Sequence record: MN850647.1
Direction: 5' to 3' (one strand)
DNA from: Escherichia phage tootiki
Length of the DNA stretch: 64,000 nt
This document shows, one piece after another, positions 2,399-39,190 of this stretch. Position 1 is the first letter of the stretch; every line of letters starts with the position of its first letter. The position numbers and the translations under genes were made by a program. Under the pieces are notes generated by a model. That model ran no database searches, was not told where the DNA came from, and saw nothing but the letters and a program-made list of their open reading frames with translations.

Positions 2399-3199
2399 TT
2401 AGTGCAGTTGGTCAGCATACTCTTTTTCAGCCATAGCTGAGATTTGCTTCACAAAATCATCACCGAAGTTAATGCGTAGTTTTTCTTCAATGATTGAAGC
2501 ACCAATGTTCACCAAAACATCATTGATGGCTTGCATACTAACGCCACCAGTCATCTCCTCAATGAACTCAATACTTACACCCATCATCTGTGAAAGTTGG
2601 ATTAGTGCAACGATATTCATCATCGTAGAGATAGCTGGAATCATCAGTGCAACTTTCACCTGAAGTGGTTCTATATCAGCTACAGAGTCATTTTCAACAG
2701 CTTCTTCCAAAGAATCTTTGGTTTGCTGGATAATTTCTTGGATTCGTGGGTTTAGTTCTTCTACCCCCCAATCAAGTTTTTCATATCGTGACAGCTTCTC
2801 TCCCATTCGCTTCTCAAGAGCAGCCATAACAGCACTTGTTGATGAAATTATCATGGAAATTAACTCATTATTACCTAATGACAGTAATAAGTCCTTTTCT
2901 TCAGAGTTAAGGGAGATATAGTCATTTTTCTGCATCTCCTTAAAAATGAACTCTGCAAGAGCATCAACACCTACGACTATAGATGCTAAAGCAAGTGTAG
3001 TGTCTGTCAACATCATGTTAACCTGTTCTGCAAAAGCACCATTATCAGACTTGTCTTCAGGCAAGTTATAGCTTGAAGGCATAAACTGTTCTGTGTAGTT
3101 GTTCCCACGAAGAATCATAGCCATGCTTTCTACGGCATTGATTAAAAATGCTTCGTCAATACCTTTTTCTTCAAGCATCTTTTCTACATCGATATTCAT
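2399..3199 (-). CDS. hypothetical protein
   Basis: 266-aa ORF, tightly packed with neighbours. Confidence 0.6.
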   Translation of the reverse strand: MNIDVEKMLEEKGIDEAFLINAVESMAMILRGNNYTEQFMPSSYNLPEDKSDNGAFAEQVNMMLTDTTLALASIVVGVDALAEFIFKEMQKNDYISLNSEEKDLLLSLGNNELISMIISSTSAVMAALEKRMGEKLSRYEKLDWGVEELNPRIQEIIQQTKDSLEEAVENDSVADIEPLQVKVALMIPAISTMMNIVALIQLSQMMGVSIEFIEEMTGGVSMQAINDVLVNIGASIIEEKLRINFGDDFVKQISAMAEKEYADQLH

Positions 3200-3200
3200 A

Positions 3201-3623
3201 TTATTTCTCTCTCAGTTGGTTAAGTTTCTTTCTAGAACATTTTAAGTTTTCGGATGAAGAAAAGTCAAGTGTCTTTTCAGAACGTGGATAATAGTGCCTA
3301 TCCCAAGAAGTTTCAACATCGTTAATCAGTGACGCTAGATTACACAGGTCTGTACCACTTTGCAACCTCTTTTTAAGAGAGTCTAGTAAAGCAACTGTGT
3401 CTTTAGCTTTACGTCTCGCTGTAGCAACATCTTTCATATGCTCAAATACAGAGCATTTTAAGTCATCTTCATAGTTTTCAGACAACTCTATTTCATGTTG
3501 TATATCAACCATCCTCCTGTGATGGTGAGCATATTCCCGTTGAGCAGCAATGTCAAGTTCTTCCAACTTCTGCAAAGCTCTAACAAAGTCAGCTATGTCT
3601 GGGTGAACAAACATTTTCTGCAT
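3201..3623 (-). CDS. hypothetical protein
   Basis: 140-aa ORF. Confidence 0.6.
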   Translation of the reverse strand: MQKMFVHPDIADFVRALQKLEELDIAAQREYAHHHRRMVDIQHEIELSENYEDDLKCSVFEHMKDVATARRKAKDTVALLDSLKKRLQSGTDLCNLASLINDVETSWDRHYYPRSEKTLDFSSSENLKCSRKKLNQLREK

Positions 3624-3821: not shown

Positions 3822-3880
3822 TTGCTTTTTATAATTTTTTGCAGTAATGTATGAGGTTAATGATTTTAGAGGGAGTAAAA

Positions 3881-6023
3881 ATGGAAAACGTAGATTTTAA
3901 AAACTTACATTTGGTTGGTGATACAGAAACTGATGGTTTACTCCTTGAGTTCACTAAAGTTCACGTAATGGCCTTTGCAGACTATAAATCTGACGATGAA
4001 GAGCCACCTGTATGGGTCTTTACAGATGAGCCTATCCTCGGTCACAAGTACACTAAGTACATTAAGGGTGGTTTACGTGAAGGTGTTGAGTTTGCGTTAA
4101 AGGCAAAACGACTTTGTATCCATAACGGCCTCGGTTATGACTGGTGGGTCTTCAATCACATTGCACCGGATTTATGGAACTTTGATAATCCAAAATGTAA
4201 GCCGTGGAGTAATTTCTTTCAGGATTCTCTTATTCAGTCTCGTGTTCAGTGGATGGATAGACCAACTCCAAAGGGTTATAAAGGTGCTCATGGTTTGGCT
4301 GCATGGGGTGCTCGTGTTGGTGTTCGTAAACCAGAGATTGAGCATTGGGGTGTATGGAATGCAGAAATCTTCACTCGTGTTGTAGAAGATATCCGTATTA
4401 ATGCCAAAACTAAACGGGCACTTGATAACGAGTATCTCAAGCTTAAGAAGTGTGGTATAGACACTTATGAGACTTACATGCGAGCTAAAGAGACATCTTT
4501 CTGGATGAGCCAGCAAGCTATCAATGGTTGGAAAGCTGATAAGGAGCTTATGGAGTTCCATGTAAAGGAACTTGACAAGTTGACTAATGAGCTTGCTTCA
4601 GAGGTTGAACCACATCTACCTCCAACTATTAAGACCAAAGGTAAAGTGACTGGAGAAGAGTTTGCAAAAGCTTGGAATGAGTATGTTGAAACATTTGGTC
4701 ATGCAGATGGACTGAAGAGAATTACCAAGTACCCTAAGACAAAGTACCGTCAGCAGGTACGTAACGGTGAGATGCAGACATACGAAATCAAACCATTTGG
4801 TAAGCCAACTACAAAGATTTTTAATATTGAAAAGAGAAATTGCTATACACCAACCAACTCTGTAACTGGTGAAGAGTACAAAGAGGGTTTTGTAGCGATG
4901 AAGGATGCTCGTGCAATCTGCAACGAGTTGAATGCAAAGATTGGCAAAAAATGCAAAGACTGGAAACCAGTAAAAACAGTCAAGACTGTGAAGTACTATA
5001 ACAGTCACGTTGTCAATCACTTTGAACTTGAGTCAAGTCGCTACACAGGTTTGATTGATGCACCATATACACCAATTGAGTTTGAAGTTTCTCGTATGAC
5101 TCAGGTAGCAGTTGTTAAAGACTACTTGAAATCAGTTGGTTGGATTCCAGATGACTGGAATTACAAGAAAGACTCAGATGGTCGCCCTATCAAAGTTTGT
5201 CGTTTCAAAGACAATAAAAAGATGATTACAAAGCATCCTAAGTGGCAGGAAATGGTTGAGCGGTGTGGTTTGAGTTATGTTGAACATGAAGGTGTACAGT
5301 ACATCGAGCATAACTGGTCTGTGAAGAAATACACAGATTTGCTTGAACCTTGCTTAATCCGTACTTCACCAAAACTTACTGAGTCATCTTATGATACGAT
5401 TGAAGGTGAACTTGGACAGAAGATTGCTAAGTACTACACTTTGATGCACCGACGCAGAACTATTGAGAACTCAAAGGATGATGAAAAAGGTTGGTTGAAC
5501 CAGATTCGTCCTGATGGTCGCCTTAGTGCTGGTGCAATGGTATTTGGTACTTCAACTGGACGTATGACACAATATGGTATTGTAAACGTACCGTCTGGTG
5601 CTGCTGTCTATGGAGCACCTATGAGGGAGGTGTGGACTTGTGAAGATGGTACAGATATCATCTCCGTAGACCAAAACTCAGCCCAGCTAGTTCTTCTTTG
5701 TAACTTTATGGGTGATGAAGACTTCACTAAAGCAGTAACCGAGGGTAAAGAGTCAGTAGAGTTCACTAAGCAAGATGATGGTAGGTACTACTGTAAGCAT
5801 CTTGACAAGTATCTTAACCCAGAAACTGACAAGTATCTGCGTTATGATGCTGAGAATGACCTCTATGAAGTCTACACAGGGACTGATGCGCATACACTGA
5901 ACAGTATTTACTTTGGTCTGAACAAGGAAGAAGATATTGTTCGTTGTAGGGAGACACAGGATGATGAGCTTCTTCACGAGATTACAAAAGGTCGTAAGAA
6001 GGCTAAGAATGGCATTTATGCGT
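3881..6023 (+). CDS. DNA polymerase, family A (T7 gp5-like), exon 1 (3'-5' exonuclease and N-terminal polymerase domain)
   Basis: ATG at 3881 after GGAGG; Exo I motif LVGDTETDGL; reading frame ends inside motif B (RKKAKNGIYA) and is followed by an in-frame stop at 6062. Confidence 0.85.
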
Positions 6024-6291
6024 CAGTGGCGCATGTAAAACGTTGTGAATTGCTGGAAGCCTAAGTCTGTAAAGATATGGTAATCAGCAGCGAAGCCTCT
6101 TAAGAGGAACGTTCAGAGACTATCGAAAAGCATACTTAACGTATGAACTGAGTAGAGTAGGGTGGTAAGCTAATGACCATCCCCAAGTGCAACGGTAGCA
6201 CCACTGCTACGTGATATAGTCCGACACTCCGTAGAAATGCGGAGAAGTTCATAAGAGAACTGGTACACCTTGCGAGTGTATTGACCAGATG
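6024..6291 (+). ncRNA. group I self-splicing intron (ORF-less) interrupting the DNA polymerase gene
   Basis: Q-like AATCAGCAGC (6082-6091), R element GTTCAGAGACTA (6111-6122), S element GATATAGTCC (6213-6222); 5' exon ATGCGU can pair with intron GCGCAU (6029-6034) as P1 with U.G at the splice site; intron ends in G at 6291. Confidence 0.65.
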
Positions 6292-6848
6292 TATTGTTCG
6301 GGGCTGGAGACGAGAAGTTTGCAAAAACTATCAAGGCATCATCTACGGAAGAAGGTGCATTGACTAAACAAACTTACTTTGTGCGTCTACCTAAGATTAA
6401 AAAACTGCTTGATAGACTAGAGGAAGACTTCAAAGCAACTAAGAAAGCACTTGAAGAGGTTTTCGGAAAAACTTCTGCAATTGCCAAAGGTGGTTATATC
6501 AAAGTTGCTGGAGCGTGGTTATGGTGTAAATCTCCACATAAGTTATTGAATTACACACTTATGGGCAGTGAGGCGCAGGTGCAGAATGAAGGTATTAACT
6601 TGGCTAACAGAGAGTTAACAGAGCGAAAACTCACAGTCCTAAATGGTAGGAAACCAGCTATTGGTGCTAGATGGGTCTGTAGTTACCACGATGAGGTATC
6701 TTTAGAGGTTCCAACCAAAGATGTACCTGATGTTAAGGAGATTATTGATAGAATGTATGGTCAAGCGTCAAAAAATCTTGGATTAAAGAGTAAGACGCTT
6801 GTTACAGGCACTGGTAAGGTAGGTAAGACATGGTACGCCGTACACTAA
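6292..6848 (+). CDS. DNA polymerase, family A, exon 2 (motif B second half and motif C)
   Basis: Spliced junction restores KNGIYA-LLFGAGDEK (T7 gp5: KTFIYGFLYGAGDEK); motif C SYHDEV; C-terminus KTWYAVH resembles T7 NWAICH. Confidence 0.8.
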
Positions 6849-7333
6849 CACTTCAAGATTACAAGGATAATTTTATTTACGACCCCGACAAAGGGGTCTT
6901 CTACAACAAGTATGACAGGAATAGACAAGCTAAAGCTGGGCAGATTGCCGGAGGTGCTGATGCTTACGGTTACAAAGTACTTAAATTCAAAGATGTCGTA
7001 ATAAAAATTCATCACCTCGTTTGGTGGTTTGAACATGGTTACAAACCCACTAAGATGATAGACCACATTGATGGTAACAGAAGTAATAATCACATTTCTA
7101 ATCTGAGGGAGACTGATAAATACGGAAATGCTCAAAATAGAGTAAAGCAGACGACTAACAAATCAGGTTACAAGGGTGTACATTACTTTAAAGACTGCAA
7201 TAAGTGGAGGGCAGCTATAACATGCAGAGGTAAAAGGACATCACTTGGTTTATTTGACACACCTGAAGAAGCCCATAAAGCTTACTGTGAAGCTGCTGTA
7301 AAACTCCACGGAGAGTTTGCAAAACTAAGTTGA
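6830..7333 (+). CDS. HNH homing endonuclease with AP2-like DNA-binding domain
   Basis: HHLVWWFEHGYKP...IDHIDGNRSNNHISNL HNH core plus C-terminal YKGVHYFK...WRAAI...LGLFDTPEEAHKAY AP2-like region. Confidence 0.7.
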   Translation: MVRRTLTLQDYKDNFIYDPDKGVFYNKYDRNRQAKAGQIAGGADAYGYKVLKFKDVVIKIHHLVWWFEHGYKPTKMIDHIDGNRSNNHISNLRETDKYGNAQNRVKQTTNKSGYKGVHYFKDCNKWRAAITCRGKRTSLGLFDTPEEAHKAYCEAAVKLHGEFAKLS

Positions 7334-7378
7334 CAAGGTGCTCATGGAAGAGTACCTTATACAATATCTTATATAGGA

Positions 7379-7594
7379 GTGATTATGAGCCACCGTGGAA
7401 GAACCCATGCAGCAATGATGAAAGGTGCTTCAAAGGAAACCATCAAGAATCGTAAGCAGAAGTTGTTTGAGAGAATGAACAGGCTAATTGATAATTCATC
7501 TCTTTCAGGTTCTGAGAAGGTTTTCTTGAAAGGTAATCTGAAAAGCATTGCACAAGAGCTTATTGACATTGAATATTGGAGACATCAAAAATGA
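7379..7594 (+). CDS. hypothetical protein
   Basis: 71-aa ORF preceded by GGAG. Confidence 0.5.
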   Translation: MIMSHRGRTHAAMMKGASKETIKNRKQKLFERMNRLIDNSSLSGSEKVFLKGNLKSIAQELIDIEYWRHQK

Positions 7595-18144: not shown

Positions 18145-19293
18145 CTAAGCTGTTCTCTGCCATACATACAATACGAAGGATGGCTGTTCAACACTAAATG
18201 CTTGACCAGAACCAGTTGGACCAGTTGTGCCAGAGTGTGAATGCTCACCTGCTCCGGTTACTGTTACTGTTGCTGAGTGGTTGTGGGAACCAATTGCAAC
18301 AGAATGGTTGTGAGCACCAATCCCAACTGTGTGATTATGCGCGCCAATTGCTACAGAGTGAGTGTGGTTGTTAGCTGTTGTCAACGTAGCTCTTGGGTCA
18401 TAGCTTGCCCCCTCAACCGATAAACCTCTCCAGCCACCATCAGCATAGCCACGGTTAATGAATGTTGTTTGTGTTAAGCCAGCGGCACTTGTTGTTCTGT
18501 TGCCATAGTCGTAAGTAGATACGGTCTTGGTTCCGTAGTCAAACGTTGTAGTCCCTTTAGTGCCATAATCAAAAGCACTGATAGAGGCCGTTGCACCATG
18601 AGTGTGACCACCACCAGTGACATACACTGAGTGGGTATGTGCAGGGATGTTATTAACCGTCAGTGCAGTAGTCTGTGAACCAAACGTTGAACCAACTGGC
18701 CTAGAATCACTATCATAACCTACAAGTGCTCTCCCTTTTGAGACTAACTCCCAAGTACCTCCACAAATTAAATATGTAGAGGGGTTTGCAGGATTCATAG
18801 AAAGATGGATAGTACCTACTGGATAAGAAGCCTGAACAGCCTTGTACAAGTTATTTACTGCTCTTGCTGTAGCATACTTATCTGCATCCTCATTATAAAG
18901 GTTAGATGTCACCCAGTTCTGAACATTACTTAACCCAACCTGTGCCTTAGTGGTGTTGTGTGGGTTGCTCTTATCATCAATATGTTGTTGAATAAGATTA
19001 TTAACCTCTTCTGAAGACATAATCTGTAGATTTGCTCTTGCCTCAGCTACATTAACAATATCTGATAAGTTATTTGCAGCAACTAACTGAAGAGCATTAA
19101 TAACATTGTCTAGACCAATTTGTGTCTTAGTAACACCATGAGGGTTGTTTCTTAGGCTTGAGTGTGGAGCAAGTAATTGCTCAAGAGTACATCTCTTATC
19201 CTCGATACCCTGTTTAAGATGGAAGATATCACTAAGGTCAATTGGTAAGGCTGCTTGAGGCAAGGCACTAATTTGAATTTCACCTACTGCCAT
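18145..19293 (-). CDS. tail fibre protein with HxH repeats
   Basis: AHTHSV, GGHTHG, NNHTHSVAIGAHNHTVGIGAHNHSVAIGSHNHS repeats. Confidence 0.7.
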   Translation of the reverse strand: MAVGEIQISALPQAALPIDLSDIFHLKQGIEDKRCTLEQLLAPHSSLRNNPHGVTKTQIGLDNVINALQLVAANNLSDIVNVAEARANLQIMSSEEVNNLIQQHIDDKSNPHNTTKAQVGLSNVQNWVTSNLYNEDADKYATARAVNNLYKAVQASYPVGTIHLSMNPANPSTYLICGGTWELVSKGRALVGYDSDSRPVGSTFGSQTTALTVNNIPAHTHSVYVTGGGHTHGATASISAFDYGTKGTTTFDYGTKTVSTYDYGNRTTSAAGLTQTTFINRGYADGGWRGLSVEGASYDPRATLTTANNHTHSVAIGAHNHTVGIGAHNHSVAIGSHNHSATVTVTGAGEHSHSGTTGPTGSGQAFSVEQPSFVLYVWQRTA

Positions 19294-19295
19294 TA

Positions 19296-27314
<8,019 letters not shown>

Positions 27315-39016: not shown

Positions 39017-39092
39017 TGGAGAATCCGAAGGGACTCGAACCCTTATAAACCTGTTCTGCAGACAGGTACATATCCATTTCTGTCACGGATTC
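39017..39092 (-). tRNA. tRNA-Cys (anticodon GCA)
   Basis: Cloverleaf by eye: acceptor GAATCCG/CGGATTC, anticodon stem CCTGT/ACAGG, loop CTGCAGA, T-loop TTCGAGT, CCA encoded. Confidence 0.7.
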
Positions 39093-39096
39093 AAAT

Positions 39097-39189
39097 TGGA
39101 GGAAGATACCAGACTTGAACTGGTACACCGATTTCTCAGCTACTGGCAGTTTAGCAAACTGCTCCCTTACCTTTTAGGGTTAATCTTCC
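39097..39189 (-). tRNA. tRNA-Ser (anticodon GCT), long variable arm
   Basis: Acceptor GGAAGAT/ATCTTCC, anticodon loop TTGCTAA, 21-nt variable arm, T-arm ACCAG-TTCAAGT-CTGGT. Confidence 0.7.
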
Positions 39190-39190
39190 A

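Follow-up and report, generated by a model that had tools for sequence, protein, structure and literature searches.

The stretch analysed here, called the window in the following, comprises 64,000 nt of the genome of Escherichia phage tootiki (MN850647.1). Its polymerase region (3851-7400) is matched by 259 phage records, nearly all of them from Felix O1-like myoviruses with 88-97% identity; the hosts of these Felix O1-like phages are Salmonella, Escherichia, Shigella and Citrobacter. The source of the window is a Felix O1-like myovirus (Felixounavirus). An Rfam scan found 24 tRNA genes in the window, as is expected for Felixounavirus. The locus under study contains a DNA polymerase gene in two pieces followed by an endonuclease gene, and the features as read from the sequence are the following:

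3851-6023, + strand: exon 1 of the DNA polymerase (family A), from the 3′-5′ exonuclease domain to the first half of motif B (ORF list)
6024-6291, + strand: group I intron, 268 nt, without ORF, IA2-like (P7.1 and P7.2 present, P2 absent)
6062-6064, + strand: in-frame TAA, 13 codons into the intron and inside P5, which closes the exon 1 frame in unspliced RNA
6291, + strand: terminal guanosine (omega G) and predicted 3′ splice site, from the sequence and as the only boundary restoring A-L-L-F
6292-6848, + strand: exon 2 of the DNA polymerase, which contains the rest of motif B (LLFGAGDEK), then motif C (YHDE) and the C-terminal end; stop codon at 6846-6848
6016-6305, + strand: putative co-conversion patch, consisting of the intron, 8 nt of exon 1 and 14 nt of exon 2
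6830-7333, + strand: free-standing HNH_3 + AP2 endonuclease gene, overlapping the polymerase stop codon and located outside the intron

The start codon of the polymerase is uncertain, with ATG codons at 3851, 3860 and 3881 as candidates. Exon 1 is 96-97% identical to the polymerase gene of Felix O1, and exon 2 aligns with residues 517-702 of T7 gp5. A sequence-only reading of this DNA had noticed that the polymerase frame stops at 6062 inside motif B and resumes behind a gap of 268 nt, and had proposed a group I intron without ORF as the cause. The frame starting at 3851 indeed meets the TAA at 6062-6064, and the ORF list contains no + strand ORF of at least 40 aa within 6024-6291.

Comparison with related phages defines the interruption precisely. 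In Felix O1 (NC_005282) the two exon anchors abut (gap of 0 nt), while they are separated by 268 nt in the window and in phage Meda and by 780 nt in VpaE1. Exactly the 268 nt of the window are missing from Felix O1 and 24 other Felixounavirus loci. Salmonella phage Meda (MH586731) carries the same 268 nt, 100% identical, at the same site in the same gene, and its polymerase CDS is annotated as a join. The uninterrupted polymerase of Felix O1 and the other intron-less loci encodes the same ...KNGIYALLFGAGDEK that is obtained by joining 6023 to 6292 in the window. The codons at the junction are GCC CTG TTA TTT in Felix O1 and GCG T|TA TTG TTC in the window, both encoding A-L-L-F, and a shift of either intron boundary by one base changes the protein. 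In group I introns the 5′ exon ends in U and the intron ends in G. No interval other than 6024-6291 agrees with these rules as well as with the protein, with U6023 as the last base of exon 1 and predicted 5′ splice site, and G6291 as the last base of the intron; both splice sites are those of the sequence-only reading. The predicted exon junction thus reads ...TATGCGT|TATTGTTC..., and it falls within a Leu codon (T|TA) halfway along the motif B O-helix, so that the placement of the break inside this motif was correct as well. All intron-plus alleles share the flank ATGCGT|TATTG, with the exon 1 end and the exon 2 start both kept. The spliced product would have the same length as the Felix O1 polymerase; 8 of 910 residues differ, none of them near the junction. 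It also aligns without gaps to T7 gp5 (...RDNAKTFIYGFLYGAGDEK...) across the junction, in agreement with the alignment proposed earlier.

A covariance-model search, which had been named as a check of the intron, was positive. When all Rfam families were scanned against the whole 64-kb window, RF00028 was found on the + strand with 61.3 bits (E 4.1e-13), above the curated gathering threshold of 50, and it was the sole match in the window that is not a tRNA. The Rfam coordinates, 5961-6244, were rejected as intron boundaries, being off at both ends compared with 6024-6291; they are misplaced because the generic model, in which a P2 is expected although this intron has none, forces P1 and P2 into the exon and stops at P9, omitting P9.1 and P9.2. 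The Q-, R- and S-like elements were found at the positions expected from the sequence-only reading (AATCAGCAGC from 6082, GTTCAGAGACTA from 6111 and GATATAGTCC from 6213). A full P1-P10 fold could be drawn, in which every helix is fully base-paired with standard pairs. It has the canonical order of P3-P9 with a P3/P7 pseudoknot. The predicted elements, all on the + strand, are:

6018-6023 (AUGCGU) with 6029-6034 (GCGCAU, internal guide): P1, 6 bp, loop CAGUG at 6024-6028
6024-6028 (CAGUG) with exon 2 6292-6296 (UAUUG): P10 guide and its predicted pairing, 5 bp (C-G, A-U, G.U, U-A, G.U)
6041-6045 (CGUUG) with 6190-6194 (CAACG): P3, forming a pseudoknot with P7
6051-6056 (UGCUGG) with 6084-6089 (UCAGCA): P4, part of the P4-P5 domain (6051-6089)
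6060-6061 (CC) with 6079-6080 (GG): P5
6065-6068 (GUCU) with 6073-6076 (AGAU): P5a, with the GNRA loop GUAA at 6069-6072
6090-6091 (GC) with 6111-6112 (GU): P6; P6 and P6a together span 6090-6112
6096-6099 (CCUC) with 6104-6107 (GAGG): P6a, loop UUAA, site of the endonuclease ORF in sister alleles
6118-6122 (GACUA, in the R element 6111-6122) with 6217-6221 (UAGUC, in the S element 6213-6222): P7
6131-6135 (CAUAC) with 6141-6145 (GUAUG): P7.1
6160-6166 (GGGUGGU) with 6176-6183 (ACCA-CCC): P7.2, with one bulged U
6195-6210: P8, GUAGCA with UGCUAC, loop CCAC
6227-6244: P9, CUCCGUA with UGCGGAG, GAAA loop
6246-6261: P9.1, AGUUC with GAACU
6262-6286: P9.2, GG+UACAC with GUGUA+CC

The P1 helix proposed in the sequence-only reading is confirmed by the letters: AUGCGU and GCGCAU are complementary, with the wobble pair U6023.G6029 at the cleavage site. 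P2 is absent, as P1 and P3 are separated by GUAAAA only. P7.1 and P7.2, the extra helices of group I subgroup IA, sit between the 5′ strand of P7 and the 3′ strand of P3, which is the arrangement found in subgroup IA2. In IA2 introns these two helices are described as joined by G-U-A (PMC3428280); the linker in the window is the 14-nt AACUGAGUAGAGUA (6146-6159), which contains GUA twice, is longer than a bare GUA and agrees with this description only loosely. The L5 loop is GUAA in the window and GGAA in another ORF-less allele (L013), so that the GNRA type is preserved. Unconstrained energy folding recovered P3, P4, P5, P6a, P7.1, P7.2, P8, P9 and P9.1, but the folding energy is only modestly better than that of shuffled sequences (z = -1.74).

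The fold was then compared with that of related introns. Viral contigs were scanned by pattern for R and S elements at the right spacing, which yielded more than 80 loci. A covariance model made from three Felixounavirus alleles gave 83 matches in these loci, representing 75 distinct related viral introns, and on that alignment the P3 and P7 pairs were counted as a pseudoknot. Across the 75 introns 92.0% of the pair cells are paired, compared with 32-42% in slid controls with the pairing partners moved by 1-3 columns, double changes occur at 47 of 53 pairs and none of 500 shuffles reached the observed pairing values; these counts are inflated because the alignment was fitted to the fold model for all helices except P3 and P7. 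P3, which was neither fitted nor selected, is paired in 66.8% and shows double changes at all five pairs, and P7, scored as a pseudoknot, is paired in 89.3%, its bases being partly preset by the retrieval pattern, which includes P7 bases. Among the fitted helices, those of the P4-P5 domain are paired in 94-96%, P6/P6a in 91-95%, P8 in 96.4% and P9 in 96.3%; P7.1 (92%) and P7.2 (99%) were scored in the relatives having these helices. Compensatory changes are also seen between the Felixounavirus alleles themselves: a C-G to U-A exchange in P6, and in the allele of phage Mushroom a C-G to U-A exchange in P8 together with a G-C to G.U change in P7.2. P1, P10, P9.1 and P9.2 are invariant among the alleles and are proposed from their complementarity. 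The IA2-like fold is kept by the 75 distinct related viral introns. The nearest ribozyme relatives do not share the insertion site; they are located in capsid-like, family B polymerase and RNA polymerase genes.

Splicing is required for a working polymerase, because the unspliced product would end at 6062-6064, halfway through motif B and before motif C. From the fold, the standard group I pathway would proceed as follows. The pre-mRNA would fold into P1-P9.2, and the internal guide would pair with the end of exon 1 and present U6023.G6029. A free guanosine bound in P7 would attack after U6023. CAGUG would hold the start of exon 2 in P10, and the 3′-OH of U6023 would then attack after G6291, joining the exons into one frame of 909 codons. 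Catalysis and the order of these steps are what we infer from the model. Taken with the boundaries and the fold, it is highly probable that 6024-6291 is a phage IA2-type group I intron in its ORF-less state, which interrupts a family A polymerase gene and is spliced by the standard pathway.

An improbable variant is that the RNA is a group I intron which no longer splices by itself, either because its folding depends on the ribosome or on a protein of the phage or the host, or because it splices so poorly that it is mainly a brake on polymerase expression. P2 is missing, P7.1 and P7.2 are connected by a long linker (14 nt) and the exon 1 frame extends 13 codons into the core. Since the stop codon lies that far into the intron, translating ribosomes would cross the guide and the 5′ strands of P3 and P4 and could disturb folding. 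The introns of phage T4 depend on translation in vivo, according to a passage in PMC10914365 that cites Sandegren and Sjoberg 2007. Against this, all core helices of the window intron are intact and conserved, and the likewise P2-less IA2 introns of Pf-WMP3 and PhiI/W31 are described in PMC3428280 as self-splicing in vitro. In addition, the polymerase is essential, yet phages with the intron are common isolates: at least 80% of the intron is present in about 96 of the 259 GenBank records matching the polymerase region, all of which come from plaque-forming isolates. We therefore retain an intron with the standard pathway as the preferred reading.

Sampling of 36 loci including the window showed that 25 are intron-less and 11 carry the intron. 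The alleles found were:

25 loci: empty site
window, Meda and L013: ORF-less intron of 268 nt
L014-L017: intron of 801-805 nt with an intact 161-aa ORF (in L015 180 aa when counted from an upstream ATG)
VpaE1 (counted as both L002 and L018): intron of 780 nt, ORF frameshifted by a 22-nt deletion
Mushroom: intron of 311 nt, ORF deleted, both ends of the insert kept including the last ORF codons and the stop codon

In the sister alleles the endonuclease ORF is located in the P6 loop. The 161-aa ORF encodes two zinc-ribbon-like CxxC pairs followed by an Endonuclease_7 domain (PF02945, E 9e-20), and its pattern CxxC...DHDH...R...CxxCN is that of the DHHRN homing endonuclease family, which was defined for F-CphI (PMC6083498). 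According to the ORF list, no intron-encoded homing endonuclease gene is present within 6024-6291 in the window allele, and no homing endonuclease domains were found in the ten other window ORFs that were scanned. The window allele is an ORF-less form of this element, which in the sister alleles contains an Endo VII-type (DHHRN) gene. A single genus thus presents all stages of the homing cycle, that is, the empty site, the intact, the frameshifted and the deleted ORF and the clean ORF-less intron.

The exons next to the intron retain a trace of how it arrived. Between the polymerase exons of the window and those of Felix O1 there are 106 differences in 3282 positions; those located between -7 and +14 of the junction number nine and are all synonymous. 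Informative sites were those at which Felix O1 differs from a divergent intron-plus lineage; between -7 and +14 the window is of the donor (intron-plus) type at all nine. Upstream, in the comparison of Felix O1 and VpaE1 from -200 to -16, the window is of the Felix O1 type nearly throughout (one site is donor-type and two are neither), and downstream, from +17 to +194, it is Felix O1-type at every informative site. Beyond the patch the exons follow Felix O1, up to 6007 on one side and from 6308 on the other. The polymerase gene of the window is therefore a Felix O1-type gene with the intron and a 22-nt donor patch, a very short co-conversion tract. This tract is unusually short and cleanly delimited, and such a tract is a trace of past intron mobility. 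By this account gene conversion would have carried the intron into a Felix O1-like polymerase gene, along with only about 8 and 14 nt of donor exon. As three of the nine sites of the patch lie in P1 and two in P10, the patch supplies exon bases needed by the ribozyme. A patchy distribution in close relatives and co-conversion of the flanking exon, as expected of a mobile intron, are thus both seen. Meda has another genome backbone and another type of downstream HNH-AP2 gene than the window, and its 5′ co-conversion boundary is at -4 and not at -7. This difference in the boundary implies separate transfer events for the two phages. We also considered whether the nine synonymous differences reflect a recoding of the Felix O1 flank for immunity. 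This was rejected; the differences are just those of a donor-type patch, and the flank common among intron-less loci resembles the intron-plus flank more than it resembles that of Felix O1.

The ORF directly downstream of the polymerase (6830-7333) matches Pfam PF13392 (E 1e-11) and PF00847 (E 1e-9). Among the sampled loci this slot is highly variable, containing at least six N-terminal types or nothing, and the types share the C-terminus ...EEAHKAYCEAAxKLHGEFAKLS. An ORF-less intron next to a free-standing endonuclease gene could form a pair for collaborative homing, with the HNH enzyme cutting the intron-less motif B site and the intron protecting its own genome. The arrangement resembles S-PM2 psbA, where an ORF-less group I intron likewise lies beside the free-standing gene for F-CphI (PMC6083498), and an HNH-AP2 gene adjoins the polymerase in four of four loci with an ORF-less or ORF-deleted intron and in only one of five ORF-containing ones. 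However, about 15 of the 25 intron-less loci have such a gene too, and Felix O1 and L007-L009, all intron-less, carry essentially the one of the window; the presence of HNH-AP2 is thus independent of the intron. Moreover, the four HNH genes linked to introns are of four different types. In loci with the window-type HNH gene the last ~350 nt of the polymerase gene are strongly divergent (63-67% identity to all other loci, compared with 80-93% in exon 1), but this block does not reach up to the intron site, as its start lies about 100 nt farther downstream. Because intron-less loci carry HNH-AP2 and the divergence begins about 100 nt downstream, there is no support for the HNH-AP2 gene serving the intron. 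Collaborative homing with this neighbour, for which the sampled loci gave no supporting association, is thus very improbable. The window differs from the S-PM2/F-CphI pair in that its neighbour is of the HNH-AP2 type, occurs also beside intron-less alleles and has nothing tying it to the intron site.

Introns in family A polymerase genes are known from other phages, and some interrupt motif B. The family A polymerase gene of LUZ24 is likewise interrupted in motif B by a group I intron; this intron has a length of 669 bp (19,143-19,811), is spliced in vivo (PMC10914365) and, unlike the window allele, carries an ORF (gp35, an Endo VII / DHHRN endonuclease). The published coordinates reproduce ...KTFIY|AFIYGAG..., which shows that the LUZ24 intron is inserted 6 nt upstream of the window site and splits the Tyr codon of KTFIY. 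The sister-allele endonuclease has its closest outside homologs (51% identity) in LUZ24 gp35 and ORFs of Berlin-like Yersinia pestis phages, both of which are listed as intron-encoded in polymerase genes (PMC6083498). Counting the codons of motif B from the invariant Lys, four insertion sites can be distinguished:

Berlin-like Yersinia phage: codon 3, Phe (TT|T), predicted
LUZ24: codon 5, Tyr (T|AT), from the published intron coordinates (PMC10914365)
Felixounavirus, window intron: codon 7, Leu (T|TA), from the intron-less alleles
KarlSchell_Bas89: codon 9, Tyr (T|AT), predicted; the record annotates a joined CDS

Three of the four sites house introns with homologous Endo VII-type endonucleases, while the intron ORF of KarlSchell gave no Pfam match. 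By the O-helix residues R754, K758, F762 and Y766 of the Klenow fragment, the window intron splits what we take to be codon ~764 in E. coli Pol I numbering, and the four sites correspond approximately to 760, 762, 764 and 766. The ribozymes at these sites are only distantly related; the cores of LUZ24 and the Yersinia phage match the model made from the Felixounavirus alleles only weakly (22 and 12 bits). None of the ORF-containing introns of LUZ24, the Yersinia phage and KarlSchell was detected by Rfam at the gathering threshold, presumably owing to the interruption of their cores by the ORFs. One might speculate that the 18 nt of the O-helix (K-x3-Y-x3-Y) are a hot spot with several intron sites, at which one lineage of endonucleases has paired repeatedly with different introns, although we regard this as rather unlikely. 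If it were true, the window allele would be at a stage after loss of the endonuclease gene, and relatives with the ORF could still mobilise it in trans in a co-infected cell.

Published sites elsewhere in family A polymerase genes, as given in PMC3428280 in E. coli Pol I positions, are 674 (SPO1, SP82, Bastille and Pf-WMP3), 676 (phiL7) and 881 (PhiI and W31). The introns of the T7-like phages PhiI/W31 and of cyanophage Pf-WMP3 are described there as IA2 introns that lack P2, have P7.1 and P7.2 and carry their ORF in P6a, an architecture that recurs in the window intron and, with the ORF, in its sister alleles. They encode endonucleases of the HNH family (PMC3428280), whereas those of the Felixounavirus sister alleles are of the Endo VII family.

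The intron is not new. It was mentioned in one sentence of the 2019 announcement of the Meda genome, without class, fold or splicing data (PMC6486253), so that the object is known and barely described. The genome paper of Felix O1 rightly reports no introns for that phage (PMC3185647). A genus-wide comparison from 2021 took the endonuclease of the intron for a repair enzyme (PMC8300805), and most Felixounavirus records list two "DNA polymerase" fragments and an "endonuclease VII". We found no paper that gives a class, fold, splice-site logic, allele series or splicing experiment for this intron. That the gene is truly split, with pieces of 737 aa (to 6064) and about 184 aa (from near 6294) assembling without RNA splicing, would fit the two separate polymerase CDSs annotated in many relatives, and no cDNA or in vitro splicing data were found for this intron or for Felixounavirus, but it is extremely improbable. 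Such a split would cut the O-helix of motif B halfway, and the second piece could start in frame only at a TTG, which serves as a Leu codon within the conserved LLFGAG. Covariance model and covariation identify the 268 nt in between as a genuine group I ribozyme, and intron-less relatives encode the same polymerase as a single chain.

The element of the window is best described as a typical phage IA2-like group I polymerase intron, free of an endonuclease gene and with a clear trace of recombination into this genome. Biologically it is a further member of the well-known class of polymerase-gene introns and will not surprise a specialist; the cluster of sites in motif B and the complete homing-cycle series in one genus are the sole aspects that go slightly beyond routine. 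With the exact splice sites and the fold, correction of the Felixounavirus records becomes possible. Felixounavirus phages are easily grown and are used in biocontrol, and the genus could be a convenient system for studying intron homing in phages of Gram-negative bacteria.

The coding sequence for motif B contains four distinct group I intron insertion sites within 18 nt, one for each of four phage groups. Three of the four introns carry homologous genes for Endo VII-type endonucleases. Counted from the invariant Lys, the sites taken as a set are:

Codons 3, 5, 7 and 9: introns of a Yersinia phage (locus L159), LUZ24 (L158), the window and KarlSchell_Bas89 (L157).

Close relatives of the window ribozyme are also found in other genes. 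Scores are those of our covariance model, which was built from three Felixounavirus intron alleles:

509-704, phage ZQ2 (L005): intron interrupting the "RNA polymerase" gene of an N4-like phage, 104 bits.
2996-3195, crAss-like cr3_1 (L006): intron interrupting the gene for a crAss-like DNA polymerase of family B, 62 bits.

A homing endonuclease ORF is located near each of these two introns. In the sister alleles of VpaE1 and Mushroom, the endonuclease gene is decaying:

Intron positions about 109-569, VpaE1 (L002/L018): endonuclease gene frameshifted by a 22-nt deletion.
3001-3311, Mushroom (L004): deletion of approximately 470 nt, sparing only the stem and the last ORF codons.

Two IMG/VR contigs (L030 and L031) are intron-less, with the junction at locus positions 4492-4495. 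Their flank, TATGCG TTG/TTA CTG, nearly matches that of the intron-containing alleles and shares with it the U of the splice position. These alleles could be natural homing sites or the outcome of precise intron loss.

The exon 1 reading frame of the window stays open for 13 codons past the intron start and ends with a stop codon at 6062-6064, inside P5. Ribosomes would therefore traverse the guide sequence plus the 5′ halves of the P3 and P4 helices. Some other phage introns have a stop codon at their very beginning.

Relatives vary in the last part of the polymerase gene and in the gene that follows it:

About 6390-6848: mosaic block, 3′ part of polymerase exon 2.
6830-7333, plus strand: free-standing endonuclease gene with HNH_3 and AP2 domains, overlapping by 19 nt the end of the polymerase gene, where the polymerase stop codon lies.

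Among loci bearing the HNH gene of the window/Felix O1 type, the block is at least 95% identical; in all other loci its identity is 63-67%, compared to 80-93% for exon 1. The polymerase protein around motif C likewise differs between the block types. It looks as if the polymerase 3′ end was imported jointly with the window/Felix O1-type HNH gene. Across relatives, the HNH-AP2 slot is either empty or occupied by one of at least six divergent N-terminal types, all with the common C-terminus ...EEAHKAYCEAAxKLHGEFAKLS.

Felix O1-like polymerase or intron sequence with 97% identity is also present in GU169904 (Staphylococcus phage SA1) and in two Campylobacter phage records, MG065664 (A132) and MG065668 (A126). 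All three bear the names of unrelated hosts and have probably been mislabelled or contaminated. Elsewhere in the window, 24 tRNA genes are clustered at 39020-44210 (minus strand), and an ORF matching DUF7338 (40377-40934, E 2e-61) is located between tRNA genes of this cluster.
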